NCBI GenBank assembly: GCA_012813795.1
Contig: GCA_012813795.1_4087.1
Source of the DNA: a phage
Direction: 5' to 3' (one strand)
Length of the DNA stretch: 64,000 nucleotides
Below, in pieces: positions 4,692-19,594 of this stretch. Made by a program: the position numbers and the translations under genes. The notes beneath the pieces are model-generated. The model searched no databases. It saw only the letters and a program-made list of their open reading frames with translations, and had not been told where the DNA came from. Position 1 is the stretch's first letter. Each line of letters begins with the position of its first letter.

Positions 4692-5103
4692 CTACAATCT
4701 CCTTTTCATATTGCTCAAGTATCGAATAGATCTTATTGGAAATGTCCAATGTTTTAACATAATCACAGTACCTGATACACCCAAAATCATACAAAGTACT
4801 AACCATAAAGAATTCTTCTTCAGAGTACTTCTTTTCATTGAATGTAATGGTATTTGTAATTTTTCCAGATTCTGAATATTTTACATAGATAATACTACCA
4901 TTACTTATGTAATCTAATGTCTCTGAATACTTTTCAATACTAGAACTATGTCTAAATTGAATTCCTACAGATTTATCATACCAAAGAGATTTATTTCCGT
5001 CAGTAAGTATAGCATAATCAATCTTACGTTTATCATTGACACACATACCACAATCGGTAATTTTTAGTTTAGTGATATCAATATTCAACAGATCACTTAT
5101 CAT
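4678..5103 (-). CDS. EEx-FQ-SL paralog family member 4 (divergent)
   Basis: SEEEFFMVSTL variant of motif. Confidence 0.55.
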   Translation of the reverse strand: MISDLLNIDITKLKITDCGMCVNDKRKIDYAILTDGNKSLWYDKSVGIQFRHSSSIEKYSETLDYISNGSIIYVKYSESGKITNTITFNEKKYSEEEFFMVSTLYDFGCIRYCDYVKTLDISNKIYSILEQYEKEIVDDSK

Positions 5104-5527
5104 CCAATTCTCCGAATTTGGTTAGAGCAAACACTTTTGCCTCATCATGCAGTTTGTGAATTAGTATGATATTATCATATGTTAAATCTAGTACATTGTC
5201 AACAAGTGAACGTTGAAATAGTATCTCTTCAGATGTGATTTCATGGATGTTTTCTATCTTAATTTCATTGAATGTATCAGTTTCATTTTCTCGCGTACTC
5301 ATGATCAACGTACCACTCGTTGAAATGTATGATATCTTGGTATCCACACCATCAATGGTTGCGTACAGGCGAATTATTTCATATGAATCAGTTAATCTTA
5401 CATTAACCTTAATTTCATCCTCTGTACAAAACCACACACTTTTAGCAAAGAAATTGACACGTACTTTCATATCTTTAAGTTTATTATTTTGGAAATATTT
5501 TAGTACTTTTTTGAATGATATAATCAT
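5093..5527 (-). CDS. EEx-FQ-SL paralog family member 5
   Basis: TSEEILFQRSLV motif. Confidence 0.6.
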   Translation of the reverse strand: MIISFKKVLKYFQNNKLKDMKVRVNFFAKSVWFCTEDEIKVNVRLTDSYEIIRLYATIDGVDTKISYISTSGTLIMSTRENETDTFNEIKIENIHEITSEEILFQRSLVDNVLDLTYDNIILIHKLHDEAKVFALTKFGELDDK

Positions 5528-5544
5528 ATGTATCTCCTTTAGTA

Positions 5545-5940
5545 CTATATCGCATAGTACTTAAATAATGTTTTTAGATCATCAATAGTGAATGGTAAAT
5601 CCTCCAAAAGCAACTGTTGAAAGTAATGCTCTTCGTCAAGATACTTATGTATATTGATGAATGATTTTCTATGATAATCCGCTTTCCATGTAGGTCTTGT
5701 ACCCTTAGTATATTCAGTGAATACAATTTTGTCCATACCATAATCATACACGAATTCATTCTTTTCTGCAACCCCCTGATACTTTAGTTTTACCGGTTCT
5801 TTGCTGATAGAAAATTTATGCTCAGATGATTCATAATAGAATGATGATTGCTGATATTTTGATAAATCAATCTTTGAAAAATCATTTAGATAATAAGAAA
5901 GTTTAATTGTGACGATGCTGCCTATTCGACGACCCAACAT
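5545..5940 (-). CDS. EEx-FQ-SL paralog family member 6
   Basis: DEEHYFQQLLL motif; AGGA SD. Confidence 0.6.
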   Translation of the reverse strand: MLGRRIGSIVTIKLSYYLNDFSKIDLSKYQQSSFYYESSEHKFSISKEPVKLKYQGVAEKNEFVYDYGMDKIVFTEYTKGTRPTWKADYHRKSFINIHKYLDEEHYFQQLLLEDLPFTIDDLKTLFKYYAI

Positions 5941-5962
5941 ACTTTTATCCTAATATAAAAAA

Positions 5963-5979
5963 TGCCCCTGGGAGGGGCA
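5963..5979 (-). terminator. hairpin tgcccct-ggg-aggggca followed by T-run on minus strand
   Basis: 7-bp GC-rich stem, 3-nt loop, TTTTTTAT downstream on minus strand. Confidence 0.4.
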
Positions 5980-6089
5980 GTACGAAAAGATATAAAATGT
6001 ACAATAAGAAATGGAAAATATAATAAATTAATTTTATTATAGAAGGGAGGAAAAATAACATAATAATATGTTAGCCATTACTGGCATAA

Positions 6090-7347: not shown

Positions 7348-7679
7348 AAAACCTTCACATCACTACGTTTATTTCGTGCGTCTTTCTTTTCCTCATCAGT
7401 TCGTGTATCATCTAATTGTAACACAACTTCTTTAAGAATGTCAACATCAATTTCAGCTTCTACGTAATGAAAGTCATTGCGACCAAAAACATACTTCACT
7501 GCAACCCATACACGCTTGTACCATTTAAGAAAAGGATTCAAACGCATACTGACTGTACATTGACCAAGTTTATCATCACCGTGTTCTTCTGTCAAGTCAA
7601 ATTGTGCAATGTGAACACAATGTTCATTTTTATCACCACAAGTACAACGCAACATAAACTCTTTGCTATCTTTACTCAT
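7344..7679 (-). CDS. hypothetical Cys/His-containing protein
   Basis: CTCGDKNEHCVH cluster. Confidence 0.5.
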   Translation of the reverse strand: MSKDSKEFMLRCTCGDKNEHCVHIAQFDLTEEHGDDKLGQCTVSMRLNPFLKWYKRVWVAVKYVFGRNDFHYVEAEIDVDILKEVVLQLDDTRTDEEKKDARNKRSDVKVL

Positions 7680-8137
7680 ACTGGATATGCCTTTTCAAAC
7701 GATTTCAGAACACCAAACTTAGCAGCATCGTAATCAAATTGATAACTCAATTCACGATTTTCATTCATACGATATACCATATGAAAGTTTGGATAACCAA
7801 TTCTAACAGGTTTATTAGAATTAGCAAGGAGAATTGCCCATTCTTTTACAGGGAACACATTTTCCTGTAACATTTTAAGATTACGTTCAAAGTACTTCAT
7901 AGCTTGTGTGCCAATCTTGTATTCTTGTTCAGTAATCTCATCAATCTCTACACTTTTGGATTCTAAATCAAAAACCCAATTGTTATCTTCGTAGTATAAA
8001 TCTTTTACATCATCGATGGTATATGAATCTGGAAGATCATAAAAAATCCACGCTGATGCCCCTGAACTGGTAATGATACGAATTTTATAATACTTCATCA
8101 CGATCCTCATTACTGTTAATGTAATAGTAACAGACAA
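7676..8137 (-). CDS. hypothetical protein
   Basis: ORF track. Confidence 0.5.
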   Translation of the reverse strand: MSVTITLTVMRIVMKYYKIRIITSSGASAWIFYDLPDSYTIDDVKDLYYEDNNWVFDLESKSVEIDEITEQEYKIGTQAMKYFERNLKMLQENVFPVKEWAILLANSNKPVRIGYPNFHMVYRMNENRELSYQFDYDAAKFGVLKSFEKAYPV

Positions 8138-8263
8138 TACAGTGTATTACCAATAAAATTAGTTCTATGATGTTAAGCATAACCACATGTGATTGTGGGA
8201 ACACCAGAGCCAATATCAACATTATAGTTGGAATGACGAATATTGTCAACTCTTTTTTCATGT

Positions 8264-8494
8264 TTATTCCTTAATATATGCATACGGCATAAAAACAACT
8301 TCAGCACCATCTACAGTATCAGCTATCACCTTAACAATACTTTCATTTTTGTTACATTGCCATACTTTTGTTATTTTATGCCTGAATACATTTCCATCTT
8401 TGACAATCCAGTACATGTTCATTTTAACAGTGCTTTCTTCACTTGGCACTAAAAGTTCATTTATTGGGGTTGCATCAAATGTTAGTTTGTTCAT
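8264..8494 (-). CDS. hypothetical protein (start uncertain; track gives 8545)
   Basis: Internal Met start reduces overlap with upstream gene. Confidence 0.35.
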   Translation of the reverse strand: MNKLTFDATPINELLVPSEESTVKMNMYWIVKDGNVFRHKITKVWQCNKNESIVKVIADTVDGAEVVFMPYAYIKE

Positions 8495-11013: not shown

Positions 11014-11568
11014 TTACAATTTAATTACTTCCTGAATACCAGTTTCCATTGCTTTCTTAGTGCGAGTATCAGAAACGACAGTACACAAATGTTCAATATC
11101 TTTACTTGGGAATGTATTAGAATCGATGATTTTTGAGTTCCAGAATCCTTTACGGAATTTCTCATAATCAGTACATTGTTCAATTTTCATTTTCTGCAAG
11201 TTATTGAACTTCTCACGCCCTGCATCAATTGTAACCATCAACTCTTGATAAATCTTAGGATCAAGATTTGGAACTTGTTGTTGAATCTGTGACATTACAA
11301 ATTTCTGATCAACTCCTTCACGTCCCTTAAAGTACGCTTCGATTGTCTCTTTCAATGCATCCTTATATTTGTCCGATACTTGAACCTTTTCTTGAATAGT
11401 TAGTGTATAACTACTCAGTTGACTTTCAGATGCATCGTAGTACTTTTTAATATTACCTTCAAAATTCACTGCACTATCATGTACTGAACTATACATACTT
11501 ACAGTTGCAAACACACCAATAACAAAAATCACCAACATACCAACCAACAAAATCATAGGCTTATTCAT
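11014..11568 (-). CDS. membrane-anchored protein
   Basis: N-terminal TM segment ILLVGMLVIFVIGVFA. Confidence 0.55.
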   Translation of the reverse strand: MNKPMILLVGMLVIFVIGVFATVSMYSSVHDSAVNFEGNIKKYYDASESQLSSYTLTIQEKVQVSDKYKDALKETIEAYFKGREGVDQKFVMSQIQQQVPNLDPKIYQELMVTIDAGREKFNNLQKMKIEQCTDYEKFRKGFWNSKIIDSNTFPSKDIEHLCTVVSDTRTKKAMETGIQEVIKL

Positions 11569-12662
11569 ACATTATTTTCCTTCATATAAAGACCAACAAC
11601 AATCGACAGTACAATGAGAATCAAAGATGCAGCAATCATAACATCTTTTCGTGGTTCCATTTTAACTGCCATGTATTCAAACTCTTTATTAGACAGACGT
11701 TCAAACTTAGTCTGTATATTATGAACCTGAACTTTAAGTAAGTCAAGTGTTAATACTTCATTTAACGCATCCATTCGCATTTTAGAATGCAATTCTTCAT
11801 TATTCATACCTTTAGCGAATGACGTACTATTGAATGATTTAACGACACCATCATTACTGATACCAAAGAACATAATCACATCGTTCTTCTTGCCACCACG
11901 CCAGATTGAGGTTACTGCATCAACAAAATTCACGTCATGATAATCATATACTAGTACTTGAATGTTTACTTGCTTTTGTGCACCTAATGTTTTTAACACT
12001 TCACGTAAATATTCATCATACCCACTCACATCGTAATCAGTTTTATTAATAACGTGGTGTGTTTTATAATAATCACTAATACTTGGATATTCAGGTAAAG
12101 ATTCCAGATATTCTTTATCATACATAGAAATCAAATCTTCAGTACTGAATAATGAGTGTTTATCTGCAAATAGATAATTTATGTATGTGTTTTCTGCTGC
12201 TGCATAATCACCATTTTTCACTTCTTGCCAGCGTGGTGGAGTTTGTGTTCCTTGTCTATTGACCCTTTCAATCTCAAACTTACCAACAGTGCTTTTAACG
12301 TACCAATCAATCTCATACGGATAGTCGAATACCTTATAAGATTCACATTCACGTTGTGAGCGACCTTTAGAATCATAGGTAGTCCAGCAACGCTCATGCC
12401 AAGTATAGTGTTTACAAGAACTTGATTGTGATGTGCAGTTCTCACGTTGGCTGTATTTCTCTGTAACCTGACCATTTAGAATTTCAACATCACGAAGTTG
12501 GCTGTAGTTTATCAAGTATGATGTTCCCAATACCAACACCGCTGCAAGAAAGCAAATTCCAGTATGAATTAGCAATTCCTTTGTTGTTATGGCAGTATGG
12601 TATTTGAACTTCATGATTAGAACAACTATCAAACTTGGTATTAGAAGAATTGCTAAGTTCAT
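11565..12662 (-). CDS. membrane protein with N- and C-terminal TM segments
   Basis: Start at ATG with AAAGGT SD; TM segments at both ends, Cys-rich region between. Confidence 0.55.
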   Translation of the reverse strand: MNLAILLIPSLIVVLIMKFKYHTAITTKELLIHTGICFLAAVLVLGTSYLINYSQLRDVEILNGQVTEKYSQRENCTSQSSSCKHYTWHERCWTTYDSKGRSQRECESYKVFDYPYEIDWYVKSTVGKFEIERVNRQGTQTPPRWQEVKNGDYAAAENTYINYLFADKHSLFSTEDLISMYDKEYLESLPEYPSISDYYKTHHVINKTDYDVSGYDEYLREVLKTLGAQKQVNIQVLVYDYHDVNFVDAVTSIWRGGKKNDVIMFFGISNDGVVKSFNSTSFAKGMNNEELHSKMRMDALNEVLTLDLLKVQVHNIQTKFERLSNKEFEYMAVKMEPRKDVMIAASLILIVLSIVVGLYMKENNV

Positions 12663-12672
12663 TGTGTTACCT

Positions 12673-13374
12673 TTAATAGTTCCCGCGTTCGTTGATTGCA
12701 TTTAAGCAATATGAAACCTGGATAGCTTCACGTGCTGCATCGAATAATGGGTGGTGAAGTTCTAGACCATAAAGACCATGATCAGCAACCATCTCCACAA
12801 ACTTTTTCAATTGTACATCAACAATGGAATCCATGTCAAATTTTTCATCTTCAGTTAGGCGATTCTTAACACTTCGGGCATTCTGTGGTGCATTATATTT
12901 CCACAATTCGCCCACACCAAACATTTTACGATGGTTTGCTTGAAGAATACTACAATCGAAGTGGCAGCCATTACCCCAAATTTCAATATTGTTCTCATTT
13001 CCATTAAGATCATAACGAAGTGAATTCCACAAATCAAGTACATTTTTTGTTTTATACAAATTGTTCTGACTACCGGAAATAATCTCAGGATCTGTCAACG
13101 TGAGTGTGCTAACTACTTCTTCATATGCACCTTTATGATCATTTTGACACATATTCATCCAAAAGTTCATTGAACCTGCATCAACTTTAAGACCAGCATC
13201 AATTTGTTTTTGGAATGGTAGTTTAACATATGCATAACGTGAGATATCTTTCATTGGGTTAGTTGGAACTAAAACAATTGCGTAATTTGGAATGATAATA
13301 TCATAACCACTACGTTCTGGAGTTCCGAAAGATTCAATATCAACTGCATAGTGTGTAACTTTATCTGCCATCAT
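12673..13374 (-). CDS. DEDD-type 3'-5' exonuclease (DexA-like)
   Basis: YAVDIESFG Exo I-like motif; AAGGA SD. Confidence 0.5.
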   Translation of the reverse strand: MMADKVTHYAVDIESFGTPERSGYDIIIPNYAIVLVPTNPMKDISRYAYVKLPFQKQIDAGLKVDAGSMNFWMNMCQNDHKGAYEEVVSTLTLTDPEIISGSQNNLYKTKNVLDLWNSLRYDLNGNENNIEIWGNGCHFDCSILQANHRKMFGVGELWKYNAPQNARSVKNRLTEDEKFDMDSIVDVQLKKFVEMVADHGLYGLELHHPLFDAAREAIQVSYCLNAINERGNY

Positions 13375-13400
13375 ATTATCCTTAGATAATTAATAAAATA

Positions 13401-13424
13401 TGTGCCCATTATACAATGGGCACA
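13401..13424 (-). terminator. hairpin tgtgccca-N8-tgggcaca
   Basis: 8-bp stem, T-rich downstream on minus strand. Confidence 0.4.
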
Positions 13425-13439
13425 TTTATATGTCAACTA

Positions 13440-14567
13440 TTACTTGTTAGCTTTGTCAGCAATTTCGCGAAGAGTTTCTTCAAGTTCGTAGGACAACTGT
13501 GCAATTTCATGTTTAGCACGTTCACGTTCTTCCTTACCTTTCTTCTCTTCAATCAGTACTGCTTCGATGCTATCAATCATTGTTTTGTGTACGTTACGCA
13601 ATGTTTTAATATCCACAATACCACGGTTATTAGCTTTAGCAGCATCTAACATATTAGTTGCTACCATTTTGGAGTTCACTTCAAGTAAACGGTTAGTTTC
13701 ATTATCAATCAAATTACCCAACTCGTTATCTTTGCGTTGGCGTTCAGAAATCAATTGTTCTGCTAGTTGTGATTTCCATGCAGGGATGACAACAGATTTC
13801 AGATCTTCAAATTTAGATACAGTGTTTAGATTCACTTTCTTCATACTCATCAGACGAGGGCCACTAAGCTCACACATCATGATAAGACGGCGAATCTTAT
13901 CTTCCTGTTTAGACAATGCTTCACAAATCATCTTCTGCTCTTGGATTGCGAAAGAATCCACATCAGGGTTCGCTTGCATTTCTTCCAGTTTAGCATCTTG
14001 AGTTTTTGTGACTTGTTCCAATTCAACCAGCGTATCGCGTAATTCAAATAGATAGGCTTTATTCTCATTGTAAGCAGTATCCAACCACTCACATTCACTA
14101 TGTTGGCGATTGATACCAACCTGGAGTGTGTTCATGATTTCATCAATCTGCTCTTTACTATTCTTGTACTGATCACCAACTTTCTGTTTTGCATTGACAA
14201 AGAGTTTTTTGACCCAACCTACAATTGATTTATCATCTTGTAGACTGTCAATATCAACAGCACGGGTTAGGGATAAAATTGTGGTAATTGATTTACCAAA
14301 TTCAGTATTGTCATCAGTGACGTTCACTTTTGACATGATTTCATCAGCCAAACGTCCTACACCTGCACCAGCAGTTGTTCCAATGGTGTTAATGTTCTGA
14401 ACAGTTAAAGACATAGTGTTACCTTTTGTATCTTTCAGTACAGGTAACGTTTTAGCCTGTTGGTCGAAAATATCACTCGCATCAAAAGTATTACCTTTGG
14501 TTTTGGTTGTAGTACGCTTAGTAGTTTTGGTAGTTGCTTTTTTTGGGTTGATTTCTTTCTCGGACAT
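13440..14567 (-). CDS. coiled-coil protein, possibly TelA-like
   Basis: Long helical heptad-rich sequence; C-terminal pattern recalls TelA/KlaA family; GAGGAA SD. Confidence 0.5.
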   Translation of the reverse strand: MSEKEINPKKATTKTTKRTTTKTKGNTFDASDIFDQQAKTLPVLKDTKGNTMSLTVQNINTIGTTAGAGVGRLADEIMSKVNVTDDNTEFGKSITTILSLTRAVDIDSLQDDKSIVGWVKKLFVNAKQKVGDQYKNSKEQIDEIMNTLQVGINRQHSECEWLDTAYNENKAYLFELRDTLVELEQVTKTQDAKLEEMQANPDVDSFAIQEQKMICEALSKQEDKIRRLIMMCELSGPRLMSMKKVNLNTVSKFEDLKSVVIPAWKSQLAEQLISERQRKDNELGNLIDNETNRLLEVNSKMVATNMLDAAKANNRGIVDIKTLRNVHKTMIDSIEAVLIEEKKGKEERERAKHEIAQLSYELEETLREIADKANK

Positions 14568-14597
14568 TAGGTTAATTCCTCATTTAATTTAAGATAG

Positions 14598-14631
14598 TGT
14601 TGCTCTGTGATAAACATTATACGAGCAACAC
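14598..14631 (-). terminator. hairpin gtgttgctc-N17-gagcaacac
   Basis: 9-bp stem between two genes. Confidence 0.3.
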
Positions 14632-14653
14632 ACATTCATGTCAACAACTATTT

Positions 14654-15775
14654 TTACTCTTTATCACCGTAAGCTAAGTTGCGAATGATAGCTGCGGTAT
14701 CAGCGTCTACTGCTTTTCCAACTTGTGTCTGTAATCGATTGATAATCAACGGAATAGTAATAGTTTGGATATCTACCATTCTATTCATGTCAATCTGATA
14801 CTGTTTACTCACATTAACTATACTAGCTTCAGTCATTGCGGCGGTAATGCTCATTTTCATGATACGTTCAAGAGTCAGTTCATATTCAAATGCATCATCC
14901 AAACGACGAATAGCATACTCACACCCAATTTTTCCGTATTCTAATTCATCTTTAATATCACGAACTTCAGTTCGAATTTCATTAAACAATGAAGTTAAAC
15001 CACTAAACTTATTCGTATCATATTTCACTGCATCATTCAATGCTTTCATTACTTTCGGTAAATCGGCCTGTTGAACCTTTATATCCGCTTTACCAAACAG
15101 TTTTTGTGTAAATGTTGGTTTCAATGGGAATAACGATTCAAGTGCAGTGGTTAAGTTATTCATTAATGTTCTAACATAATCACTATGCTTATGTAATGCA
15201 TCATTAAGATCCAATTGACGCTCTGAAATTTTTTGAATCTTCACACCAACTTCCTGTGCACATACTGGTAAGTTTACGAACCAATCCAGTACTTTTACAG
15301 AATCCTTTTTAATAGTTTCAGGAAATTCCATCCATTGTTCGATATCCGCAATGCGTTCATCTTCTGGATCAATTGGTGTTTTAGTCAGAACAATTGGTGC
15401 TGGCACTTCAACCACTGCAAGTTCTGGACGTGGTTTAAGACGACCTTCTTTCCATGCTTCGTATTCACGCTCAAGTGGAGGTACTGGCAAATCACGAATC
15501 TGAATATTTTTAAAATGAATTTCATCTTTCATGAGATCTAACATATTCAAACGTGTGTTTGAATAGTAAATTTTTGATAGTTCTAAATTACGAACATCAA
15601 ATTCGGGATTTCCCATTGAATCATAAGTACGTTTTACGATTACATTATAAAAGTACTTTTTATTGTCGCGACGATCATACTTTTTCAGTAATGAATTCAA
15701 CACAAACTGGTAATCAAACTCTTGGATTTCAATTTCTTGTTTGTTCTCAATGAAAAAATATTTTCCTTTCATCAT
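14654..15775 (-). CDS. hypothetical protein (similar size to neighbour 13440..14567)
   Basis: ORF track; AAGAGG SD. Confidence 0.55.
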   Translation of the reverse strand: MMKGKYFFIENKQEIEIQEFDYQFVLNSLLKKYDRRDNKKYFYNVIVKRTYDSMGNPEFDVRNLELSKIYYSNTRLNMLDLMKDEIHFKNIQIRDLPVPPLEREYEAWKEGRLKPRPELAVVEVPAPIVLTKTPIDPEDERIADIEQWMEFPETIKKDSVKVLDWFVNLPVCAQEVGVKIQKISERQLDLNDALHKHSDYVRTLMNNLTTALESLFPLKPTFTQKLFGKADIKVQQADLPKVMKALNDAVKYDTNKFSGLTSLFNEIRTEVRDIKDELEYGKIGCEYAIRRLDDAFEYELTLERIMKMSITAAMTEASIVNVSKQYQIDMNRMVDIQTITIPLIINRLQTQVGKAVDADTAAIIRNLAYGDKE

Positions 15776-15811
15776 CAGCCTCTTTTTAATTAATAGTAAA
15801 TCAATAATGCT

Positions 15812-15840
15812 ATTCTATCTAACTTGATTAGTATTGTCAA
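15812..15840 (-). promoter_or_regulatory. sigma70-like promoter TTGACA-N17-TAGAAT
   Basis: Minus strand hexamers with 17-nt spacer, about 40 nt upstream of ATG at 15775. Confidence 0.4.
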
Positions 15841-15866
15841 CACCTAAATGAAAAAAAGGACGCACC

Positions 15867-16685
15867 TTAGCACGTCCCTTTGTTGTTCTTCTCTCTGTAC
15901 CAGTTGAAACCCTTAACTGGTGGGTACTTCTCATCTTTAGGTGGCTCCGGCATATCATACACCGTTGCATTCCTAAATTTTAAAATGTAAACTTCCATAA
16001 GACGTATGATAGCATAGTTTAAACATTTCTGTGCTCTTTCTTTCCAAAAATGTTTATATGGTTCTGGACAGTTTAGATAGTCCAGTTTATACATACCCAT
16101 TGCTGCTTGTACAAATCTCTGTGCTGAAAATTTACGTTTGTCAACCTTACTGGCTCTGTACTGATCAGATGTCCAGCTTTGTACCCCAGGTAAATGACAA
16201 AACAAATCAAACTCTACCATAGAACTAAAATATTCATTATGACCGTGTAGTTCACCATAGAACAATGCCTCATTGACAGTCTCATATAATGAAAAATTCA
16301 TATGTATATGTTCATTATCAAAGATGTTCTTTAGTTCTTTGTACGTCTCTGGTACTGGTGGTTCAGGTAACAACTCACCAAATGTCTCAATGCACCAGAT
16401 TTTCCACAATCCTTTTGTGAATTGTACTTCACGTTCTCTATCACTGTCAATATAAAATGTTTTTTCATTAATGAAAACCTTTCGTGCCATATATGCTTTA
16501 AAGATTGCATCGGGATCGATATCATCACGTTTAATGTCATCCCATCCCTTACCAATCCTTGAAATCTCAAATCTACGCATATACATTCTACAAGCTAAAT
16601 CTTTTGTAGTACTGCGACGATACTTTTCATCCTGAACCAATTTAGTACTTTCATGTAGAGATTTCAACATATTTAAAATTCTCAT
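15867..16685 (-). CDS. hypothetical protein
   Basis: ORF track. Confidence 0.55.
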   Translation of the reverse strand: MRILNMLKSLHESTKLVQDEKYRRSTTKDLACRMYMRRFEISRIGKGWDDIKRDDIDPDAIFKAYMARKVFINEKTFYIDSDREREVQFTKGLWKIWCIETFGELLPEPPVPETYKELKNIFDNEHIHMNFSLYETVNEALFYGELHGHNEYFSSMVEFDLFCHLPGVQSWTSDQYRASKVDKRKFSAQRFVQAAMGMYKLDYLNCPEPYKHFWKERAQKCLNYAIIRLMEVYILKFRNATVYDMPEPPKDEKYPPVKGFNWYREKNNKGTC

Positions 16686-18020: not shown

Positions 18021-18641
18021 TTATTTTTTCATTAGTTCGTAAATTTTTAGACGAAGTTCGCTCCAATTATTAACATAATCAAAGCCGTTGTTATGCTTGT
18101 ATTCATGGTTATGACACGCACACATCATAACAGCAGGTATATCCAACTCTATAGCCGTTTCTATATTTTTAATATAATCGTCAATCAAAAATTTAACGTC
18201 ATATTGAGCTTTTAATTTCATTAGTGCTGATTTTTTGGATTCATACATTTCAATGATAATGATATCATCAAAAATACCCTCACCAAAGACATTAATGAGA
18301 TTCACATTACGGAGAACTTCTCCGTGTCCGAATGTACCCGATTTAGTCAGTACTACAAATTTATCATATGGGAACTTATCACGTAATTCTTGCATAATTC
18401 CAACCGTGTTATGTTCTACTGGGTCAAGTAGACCAAACTCATAAGAACGATGGTTGAAGTGTTTTAGAATCTCTTGCACTTCAGGTTGAGTAATTCCACC
18501 CAACCACTGACACAAATCATATTTTTCTGGATATGGTGTTTCTGGATGAATATCATAATGTTCTTTAACAAAATTATATAGACCACCAATGTGGTCCAAT
18601 AGCACTTCATCACAATCCCATACTACACAACGTTGTTTCAT
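18021..18641 (-). CDS. HAD-superfamily 5'-nucleotidase-like protein
   Basis: WDCDEVLLD matches HAD motif I (DxDxV); ATG overlaps gp44-like stop as TAATG; track start is TTG at 18659. Confidence 0.5.
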   Translation of the reverse strand: MKQRCVVWDCDEVLLDHIGGLYNFVKEHYDIHPETPYPEKYDLCQWLGGITQPEVQEILKHFNHRSYEFGLLDPVEHNTVGIMQELRDKFPYDKFVVLTKSGTFGHGEVLRNVNLINVFGEGIFDDIIIIEMYESKKSALMKLKAQYDVKFLIDDYIKNIETAIELDIPAVMMCACHNHEYKHNNGFDYVNNWSELRLKIYELMKK

Positions 18642-19594
18642 TACATATTTCCTGAACAAATCAAGTCAATTTCACATAGTAATGCACTCAGGTTCATCTC
18701 ACGATCAGAAACTGTTGATTGTTTGACAACTGCATCACGGATTTTAACCTTGATTTTCATTAGTGTGATTTCATCAGTACTGAACATTTCTGCATTACGA
18801 TACAGATACGAGAAAAACGCATCCATTTCGTCATCAGGGATATTTTGAACAATCTGCTCACGCATCTGACGAATGTTTCCCGCCTTTAATGCATCAACGA
18901 TTGCCGTGCGATACCCAGCAGAATTCTCAATACTGTCTTCTAGTTTTACTAGTTTACCATCAACTACTGAACTCTGCAATACGTTTAATGTTTTGCGGAA
19001 GTCAGGGTACGATGCATTGATGTATTGCTGCACTTGATCAATACTTTCTTCTGATGATAAATCTACACCCTCAGCTAACAGTACGTTGATGATACGGGTC
19101 ATAAACTGTTCCATATCATGCTTCTCGATTGTAATTACTTGCACACGAGAAATAATAGGTTTCAAAATTTTATGTGGCTCATTACTGGTTAGAATAAAAC
19201 GAGCATTCTCGTGATAATCTTCCATGACACGCTTCAGGCTACCTTGTGCTTTGTGGTTCATCTGTTCCATTTCTTCCAGAACAAATACACGATAACGTCC
19301 AAAACATGATAGTTTTGCGGCAGCGTCAATCTTATCACGCACAGCATCAATACCCTCATCTGACATGTTTAGAGTTGTTACATCACTTGGGTCCAGGTGA
19401 CCATTAGCTTCAAGTCCATTTAGTAGTACTTTAATCGCTGAAGTTTTTCCTGTACCAGCGGGACCAAAGAATCCAATATGTGGAATATTGCCAGTACAAA
19501 TCCATTCTTCCATCTTTTTACGAAGAGCATCATTTTTGAAAACGTAATCTTCTAGGGTTTGTGGGCGATATTTTTCAGTCCATAGTGTAGTCAT
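18641..19594 (-). CDS. 44: clamp loader ATPase subunit (T4 gp44-like)
   Basis: EKYRPQTL, Walker A GPAGTGKT, AAA+ clamp-loader layout; GAGGAA SD. Confidence 0.85.
   Translation of the reverse strand: MTTLWTEKYRPQTLEDYVFKNDALRKKMEEWICTGNIPHIGFFGPAGTGKTSAIKVLLNGLEANGHLDPSDVTTLNMSDEGIDAVRDKIDAAAKLSCFGRYRVFVLEEMEQMNHKAQGSLKRVMEDYHENARFILTSNEPHKILKPIISRVQVITIEKHDMEQFMTRIINVLLAEGVDLSSEESIDQVQQYINASYPDFRKTLNVLQSSVVDGKLVKLEDSIENSAGYRTAIVDALKAGNIRQMREQIVQNIPDDEMDAFFSYLYRNAEMFSTDEITLMKIKVKIRDAVVKQSTVSDREMNLSALLCEIDLICSGNM

Follow-up and report, generated by a model that had tools for sequence, protein, structure and literature searches.

Known since 1991, TelA (KlaB) occurs widely in bacteria, in plasmids and in phages. 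In plasmid RK2, the kilA operon gives tellurite resistance only as a mutant allele and with a need for KlaC/TelB, a point that counts against taking the tellurite label of the family literally. When derepressed, kla genes kill E. coli, and the ter loci of IncHI2 plasmids confer phage inhibition and colicin resistance. The present analysis concerns a phage locus with relatives of these genes, located in a 64,000-nucleotide stretch of phage DNA (contig GCA_012813795.1_4087.1 of assembly GCA_012813795.1; the whole stretch is referred to as the window), where a telA gene at 13440..14567 and the gene immediately upstream, at 14654..15775, appear from profile comparisons to form a klaA/telA-like pair.

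In the plasmid systems, KlaA has been described as a truncated TelA paralog, and KlaA, KlaB and KlaC are all required for FiwB fertility inhibition (PMC5696584). For Ter systems, an action against phages and xenobiotics has been proposed, in which TelA would form structures beneath the membrane (PMC7824862). Bacterial TelA mutants show increased sensitivity to nisin, and the gene is responsive to cationic peptides, with the mechanism of TelA still being described as unknown in 2026 (PMC12791056). In phages, TelA has already been noted in slurp01, PBECO4 and 121Q (PMC5114366), while it goes without mention in the virion proteomics paper on phAPEC6 and the omics paper on PA5oct.

The window belongs to an Asteriusvirus, a Rak2-like jumbo coliphage, sharing 98.6% identity with the 355-kb Escherichia phage A4 (Asteriusvirus) across 7.1 kb and approximately 77% identity with 121Q, PBECO4 and relatives, which are Rak2-like jumbo myoviruses. 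The region consists of tightly packed minus-strand genes. In the records of phage A4 the two genes correspond to A4_94 ('TelA-like protein') and A4_93 ('hypothetical protein'), and in those of phage 121Q to gp66 ('TelA-like protein') and gp65 ('hypothetical protein'). The TelA identity of the downstream gene is already on record, both in annotations and in the literature. The apparent novelty, on the profile evidence given below, is that the 'hypothetical' phrog_13312 gene beside it is a cryptic KlaA-type paralog, so that a supposed standalone phage TelA would really be one half of a pair. This is an advance and refinement at the level of annotation, and not a new biological principle or a new kind of system.

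The TelA gene and its upstream partner

The downstream gene (13440..14567, minus strand) encodes a protein of 375 residues which, as judged from profile searches, is unambiguously a full-length member of the TelA family. The original prediction, made from the letters alone, had placed both reading frames correctly and had offered a TelA relationship as a weak resemblance of the C-terminal region, whereas the match to Pfam PF05816 is strong (E=4.9e-38; 131.5 bits, with a cut-off of 30) and spans residues 57-367, equivalent to profile positions 14-331 of 332 and thus nearly the whole protein. The PHROG comparison agrees (phrog_5890, 'tellurite resistance'; E=3.9e-131), and every listed homolog of the protein carries PF05816. 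Across 29 phage and bacterial TelA sequences 15 columns are invariant, all of which are kept in the phage protein (G63, P237, K252, P262, W264, T291, N292, R315, G316 and D319, among others), with an identity of 20-24% to the bacterial TelAs in the alignment and of approximately 23% to KlaB of RP4. No hydrophobic window or transmembrane-like segment was found in the protein, which points to a soluble product. Its AlphaFold2 (AF2) model is entirely helical, the helices being very long, and has a mean predicted local distance difference test (pLDDT) value of 66.6. Values fall below 50 in a Lys/Thr-rich low-complexity N-terminal tail, KKATTKTTKRTTTKTKGNT, which comprises residues 1-40 (14447..14567, minus strand) and lies outside the Pfam match. 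NCBIfam and PADLOC gave no match for this protein or for the upstream one, and a PDB sequence search with both profiles found no solved TelA relative, just chance matches to aBAK and influenza HA2.

The upstream gene (14654..15775, minus strand) lies immediately 5' of telA on the same strand, at a distance of 86 nucleotides, and encodes 373 residues when read from its first ATG. A Shine-Dalgarno sequence, AAGAGG, is read directly from the DNA at 15779..15784 (minus strand), as had been predicted, and stands 3 nucleotides before the first ATG and 6 before the second. The true start is probably at 15772, giving 372 residues, because the consensus of the family begins with MKGK, with no variation at M2 or K3, and the second ATG is the start used in the A4 record. 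The partner is 'hypothetical' in all annotated records inspected; it has no Pfam match at E<=0.1, and it matches phrog_13312, a family of unknown function, with E=5.3e-179. Its close homologs form 34 clusters, all the source-named ones coming from Rak2-like jumbo phages, and when 1.84 billion representatives were searched exhaustively with a hidden Markov model (HMM) of this family, 30 relatives only were retrieved. Shorter homologs (approximately 290-340 residues) match the C-terminal part alone, at about positions 118-365. The AF2 model of the partner (mean pLDDT 86.6) comprises an N-terminal domain, a linker and a helical domain at residues 159-369, and the protein has no transmembrane segment. 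The N-terminal domain is a predicted α/β fold (ββαβββα; residues ~1-90; 15506..15775, minus strand; pLDDT ~83-93) which has no match in Pfam and is specific to the Rak2-like clade.

Profile comparisons indicate that the C-terminal domain of the partner is very likely a diverged KlaA/TelA-type domain. The aligned part, residues ~166-369 (14669..15280, minus strand), equals TelA residues ~56-300. When a profile of close partner homologs only was aligned with TelA by hhalign, a probability of 6% was obtained (E=0.006). With a profile of the broad family (36 sequences), the values were 67-75% against TelA (E 2.4e-5 to 5e-5), 89.5% against three plasmid KlaA proteins (E 2e-6), 92.0% against 11 KlaA proteins (E 6.4e-7) and 92.8% against TelA and KlaA merged (E 4e-7), the last over 193 columns joining partner residues 174-369 to TelA residues 64-300. 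The alignment is collinear, and support rises as diversity is added while the register stays constant. TelA against KlaA served as a positive control, this being a homology already recognised by Pfam and in the literature (PMC5696584), and gave 94.7-95.4% in the same setup (E 6.3e-8 to 1.8e-8). Scores of the real comparisons ranged from 43.6 to 58.7, and all negative controls remained lower, with reversed profiles at 17-21, a maximum of 19.3 in 30 column shuffles, of 25 among twelve real unrelated proteins and of 30.9 in 60 shuffles of 20-column blocks.

A rank test among 792 real open reading frames (ORFs) of at least 100 residues, taken from all fetched loci and the window, points in the same direction. 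With the HMM of the upstream family, TelA/KlaA ORFs fill 20 of the 21 top non-self ranks among 593 scored ORFs, the KlaAs standing on top, and make up approximately 7% of the background. Conversely, of the 517 ORFs ranked by the KlaA HMM, members of the upstream family take places 1 and 3-9. The hypergeometric P values of 3e-22 and 9e-12 are nominal and inflated, as members of a family are not mutually independent. At the level of residues, the LKPTFTQKLFG part of a near-invariant partner motif, FP-LKPTFTQKLFG, pairs with EKPTWFEKMLG of RP4 KlaA, and the near-invariant Pro342 of the partner (IPLII) pairs with the invariant Pro262 of TelA (IPAWK). In the AF2 models, helix breaks occur at aligned positions (292-295 in the partner and 200-204 in TelA), and a Foldseek search with the partner included three phage TelA models among its weak matches, the best with a probability of 0.92. 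On the TelA side the alignment stops at residues 271-300 of 375, leaving the partner without the C-terminal segment of TelA. In plasmid KlaA, the Pfam TelA match extends over positions ~12-250 of the 332 in the profile, and the partner aligns to this very portion of TelA. The partner fails to be recognised by the Pfam TelA profile, whereas plasmid KlaAs score 30-41 bits.

The pairing of the two genes has also been observed beyond the window. The order of the KlaA-like gene followed by TelA is kept in all 15 Rak2-like loci, down to approximately 39% identity, within an eight-gene block which is collinear in the same loci over the same range and contains two virion proteins, a 272-residue protein, the partner, TelA, an Rv2179c-like exonuclease, a membrane protein with three transmembrane segments and a LemA-annotated protein. 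By itself, the collinearity of this block shows only clade-wide synteny. Outside the clade, Xanthomonas jumbo phage XaC1 carries TerD, a partner homolog and TelA, with 9 nucleotides separating the last two. Klebsiella phage FBKp34 (141 kb, Stephanstirmvirinae) carries TerC and, further along, TerF-vWA, two TerD genes, a partner homolog and TelA, with a hydrolase and a phosphoribosyltransferase (PRTase) further on. In both phages the pair lies within a Ter cluster and the surrounding genes differ from those of the Rak2-like block, and the protein before TelA matches the helical domain of the upstream protein (family HMM; E=5e-62 in FBKp34 and 8e-74 in XaC1). A related-locus search seeded with P0114, a remote member of the upstream family, found none.

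Promoters and the proposed role of the pair

A motif scan located three sites of the σ70 type within a 2.5 kb stretch of the window, one before each of three consecutive minus-strand genes. The first, P1 (TTGACA-17-TAGAAT; 15812..15840), precedes the upstream gene and had been recognised in the original prediction, which set both genes behind it. The second, P2 (TTGACA-17-TATAAT; 14616..14644), had been missed; it stands directly before telA, to which it would be dedicated, and is perfect, matching the consensus at 12 of 12 positions. The third, P3 (13408..13436), is likewise a perfect TTGACA-N17-TATAAT and precedes the exonuclease gene that follows. Only one further match to TTGACA-N17-TA[GT]AAT occurs in the window, giving four sites against 0.07 expected by chance, a number reached in none of 100 shuffles. 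Among 13 related loci examined, all carry a σ70-like site upstream of the partner homolog and 11 carry a comparable one between partner and TelA. Apart from the single promoter, the start codon and the reach of the TelA similarity, the original prediction is confirmed in what it observed and supported in how it was read.

Taking these results together, the pair is probably the phage counterpart of klaA-klaB(telA) in the IncP kilA operon, and by analogy it would form an early, membrane-proximal assembly that excludes competitors or buffers envelope stress. The product of 13440..14567 is a canonical, soluble, all-helical TelA, and the partner would combine its clade-specific α/β domain with a highly diverged KlaA/TelA-type helical domain (~166-369) corresponding to roughly the N-terminal three quarters of TelA. 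Both genes would be transcribed early in infection by unmodified host RNA polymerase, because each has a near-consensus σ70 promoter. By analogy with TelA, KlaABC and Ter, the two paralogs would then co-assemble into a helical structure beside the membrane and alter the envelope during the long jumbo-phage cycle, either excluding superinfecting phages and invading DNA or buffering envelope stress, and tellurite detoxification would not be the expected role. Of all this, the TelA membership, the profile-level relation of the partner, the conserved gene order, the promoter motifs and the lack of transmembrane segments in either protein were observed directly, and the early timing, the association of the two proteins with each other and with the membrane and the biological role are inferred. 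From the conserved pairing, a heteromer of a KlaA-type and a TelA-type protein may be supposed as the functional unit.

Several observations weigh against this reading. The paralogy raised by the original prediction does not stand in a BLASTP comparison of partner and TelA (E=0.06, non-significant), and it is at the profile level that similarity between the two proteins was found, with a probability of 67-93% in HHalign. No sequence-to-profile method ties the partner to TelA at significance, and a Pfam TelA match is absent in 19 remote relatives of the partner even at E<=1. Single HMM scores in the rank test reach at most 16.5 bits, so that the link is seen only at the family level, and the HHalign probability never exceeds 93%, with long amphipathic helices being prone to spurious matches. 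Adjacency inside the Rak2-like clade is not in itself evidence of functional coupling, because the entire eight-gene block is syntenic. The Ter loci of Phapecoctavirus and of Caulobacter phages contain TelA without a detectable partner, and no homolog of KlaC/TelB, TerC, TerD or TerF, nor a PRTase, was detected within the window. Finally, as read from the promoter motifs, partner and TelA each have their own σ70 promoter; therefore they do not lie simply behind one promoter, as originally predicted, and would not form a single-promoter operon.

Candidate partners were considered in these other Ter loci. The 333-residue neighbour in Caulobacter phage CcrC3 is unsupported as a KlaA-like partner, with a score of 25 at most, and the same holds for gp031, gp032 and gp024 of Phapecoctavirus (scores <=25). 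In Escherichia phage anhysbys, a Phapecoctavirus, gp024 (264 residues, 'hypothetical protein'; 7605..8399 in locus L020) lies 1.6 kb downstream of TelA and contains DISGSM, a DxSxS motif resembling the MIDAS of vWA domains. The motif raises the possibility that gp024 serves as a TerF-type vWA component, so far unannotated, in the Ter cluster of its phage.

A more far-reaching version of the proposal holds that the KlaA-like/TelA pair is a self-sufficient two-component module, shared by several phage lineages and plasmids, which early in infection would build a heteromeric helical lattice under the inner membrane and block competing phages and plasmids, with the α/β domain of the partner as a sensor or anchor. 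This is a tentative possibility; were it true, the pair would offer a minimal, tractable system for working out the function of the TelA family. It is unlikely, in the opposite direction, that the downstream gene alone belongs to the TelA family and that the partner is an unrelated helical bundle, its similarity being compositional or convergent and its position a product of clade synteny. Against such an account, the hhalign score climbs in a fixed register, as diversity is added, to a level comparable to that of the known TelA-KlaA control, more than 100 controls and decoys all score lower, the best ranks are reciprocal at the family level, and the adjacency persists in XaC1 and FBKp34, outside the syntenic clade.

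Among functional alternatives to an exclusion or stress-buffering assembly, the principal one is that the pair constitutes a 'kil' module for killing or taking over the host, with early products toxic to the envelope or to division that help shut the host down. Homology to genes of the kilA operon and strong σ70 promoters, which imply immediate early expression, speak for it, as does the lethality of derepressed kla genes that Goncharoff et al. and Saltman et al. reportedly described in 1991. Such a function is nonetheless improbable, as bacterial TelA has been linked to protection against envelope-active agents (PMC12791056) and phage Ter systems have been read as protective or exclusionary (PMC7824862), and no KlaC partner is found in the window. 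Least probable by a wide measure is that TelA literally provides tellurite or toxic-anion resistance to an infected or pseudolysogenic host, its neighbour being irrelevant, as the family name, the 'tellurite resistance' labels of databases and the xenobiotic resistance suggested for pseudolysogeny (PMC7824862) would have it, since the jumbo phage is of a virulent type and its σ70 promoters are early ones, gut and sewage habitats seldom contain tellurite, KlaC/TelB was not found in the window and a pair so strictly conserved across hosts is more likely to serve the phage cycle.

A klaA/telA-like pair of this kind ties together phage, plasmid and Ter-system biology and provides a functional lead for phrog_13312, hitherto 'unknown'. 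It also singles out two non-structural, probably early genes of jumbo coliphages considered as therapeutic candidates as candidates for superinfection exclusion or envelope-stress protection.

Intergenic stem-loops and neighbouring genes

Three consecutive short intergenic regions on the minus strand (13400..13436, 14598..14644 and 15812..15881) each pair a near-perfect σ70 promoter with a stem-loop. Just 5' of P1, a hairpin resembling an intrinsic terminator (15854..15881; folding z=-2.35), with a 12-bp stem followed by the U-tract TTTTTTTCATTT, would end the preceding gene. Before telA, the minimum-free-energy structure contains a stem-loop, GTGTTGCTC...GAGCAACAC (14598..14631), which encloses the -10 box of P2 and is energetically unexceptional (z=-0.39). 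This stem-loop would form solely in read-through RNA from the upstream gene, and some read-through from P1 into TelA is conceivable because the intergenic hairpin is weak. After TelA, a composite terminator/promoter is present (13400..13436), in which the loop and 3' arm of an 11-bp hairpin (13425..13400) hold the -10 box of P3. Its folding z is -4.15, and none of 200 shuffles folds as well.

This arrangement resembles the promoter-early stem-loop (PeSL) cassettes of T4-like phages, in which a strong σ70-like promoter and a stem-loop lie between short early genes (PMC2839356, PMC4122927), and the likeness is closest at 13400..13436, where a perfect promoter has its -10 box within the hairpin itself. 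PeSLs have been described in Tquatrovirinae, unlike the Rak2-like phage of the window, and the likeness rests on three cassettes, of which the P2 hairpin, unlike a PeSL, is energetically insignificant. In the Erwinia/Yersinia/Serratia-type relatives (loci L005, L008-L012, L015 and L016; about 4950..6000 in each), approximately 1 kb of extra sequence lies between the 272-residue gene and the KlaA-like gene and carries further σ70-like promoters. Such inserts are in keeping with intergenic sites flanked by promoters acting as hot spots of insertion.

Downstream of TelA, the next gene (12673..13374, minus strand) encodes a predicted Rv2179c-like 3'-5' exoribonuclease (Pfam E=1.6e-8; phrog_255, exonuclease), which has been labelled variously in relatives as 'metallopeptidase' (121Q), 'DNA polymerase III subunit epsilon' (Turkey5) and 'peptidase'. 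It is followed by the gene for a conserved 378-residue membrane protein (11565..12701, minus strand; phrog_2087, function unknown) with two N-terminal hydrophobic segments and one C-terminal segment. The possibility that this protein is the equivalent of KlaC/TelB or TerC was rejected, as it is without similarity to either; tblastn and blastp detected no similarity of KlaC to the window or to this protein. Its gene overlaps the start of the LemA-annotated gene (11014..11568, minus strand), which encodes 184 residues with an N-terminal transmembrane segment and is recorded as 'LEMA protein' in 121Q and 'lemA protein' in Turkey5. No Pfam LemA match was found for this protein at E<=0.1 and in PHROGs it falls under phrog_1383, a virion structural protein; support for the LemA label seems to be lacking. 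On the other side of the pair, a HAD-like phosphatase gene (18021..18659, minus strand) lies four genes upstream, with two virion-protein genes between; HAD phosphoesterases are components of complete Ter systems.

Comparison with plasmid kilA operons and phage Ter clusters

In RP4, IncHI2 and Pseudomonas plasmids, KlaA (256-269 residues; 'toxic anion resistance protein' in PGAP annotation) immediately precedes TelA/KlaB (368-378 residues), and TelA is followed by a KlaC-like gene in the records of the IncHI2 and Pseudomonas plasmids. The phage locus resembles these klaABC loci and the klaA-klaB(telA)-klaC(telB) genes of RK2/RP4 kilA in that a full-length TelA (approximately 370-378 residues) is directly preceded, on the same strand, by a shorter TelA-type paralog with a truncated C-terminus, with both phage proteins being soluble and helical, as are KlaA and KlaB. 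In profile comparisons, the partner is closest to KlaA. Unlike plasmid KlaA, however, it is far more diverged, lacking a Pfam TelA match, and it carries an extra N-terminal α/β domain of approximately 90 residues and a linker. The surroundings differ as well, as no KlaC/TelB membrane-protein gene follows the phage TelA, the next gene being the exonuclease, and each phage gene has a separate σ70 promoter where kilA has one operon promoter regulated by KorA/KorB. The phage pair, moreover, resides in a lytic jumbo phage.

A second likeness is to the phage Ter clusters (TerC, TerD, TerF-vWA, TelA, PRTase and HAD) of Stephanstirmvirinae such as FBKp34, and of XaC1, in which a homolog of the helical domain also stands directly before TelA. 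Unlike those clusters, the pair of the window is detached from all other Ter components, and its partner has gained an N-terminal domain. The TelA of the window is a bona fide full-length member of the gene class referred to in PMC7824862. In that work phage TelA is treated as standalone, whereas in Rak2-like loci, XaC1 and FBKp34 it is paired with a KlaA-like paralog.

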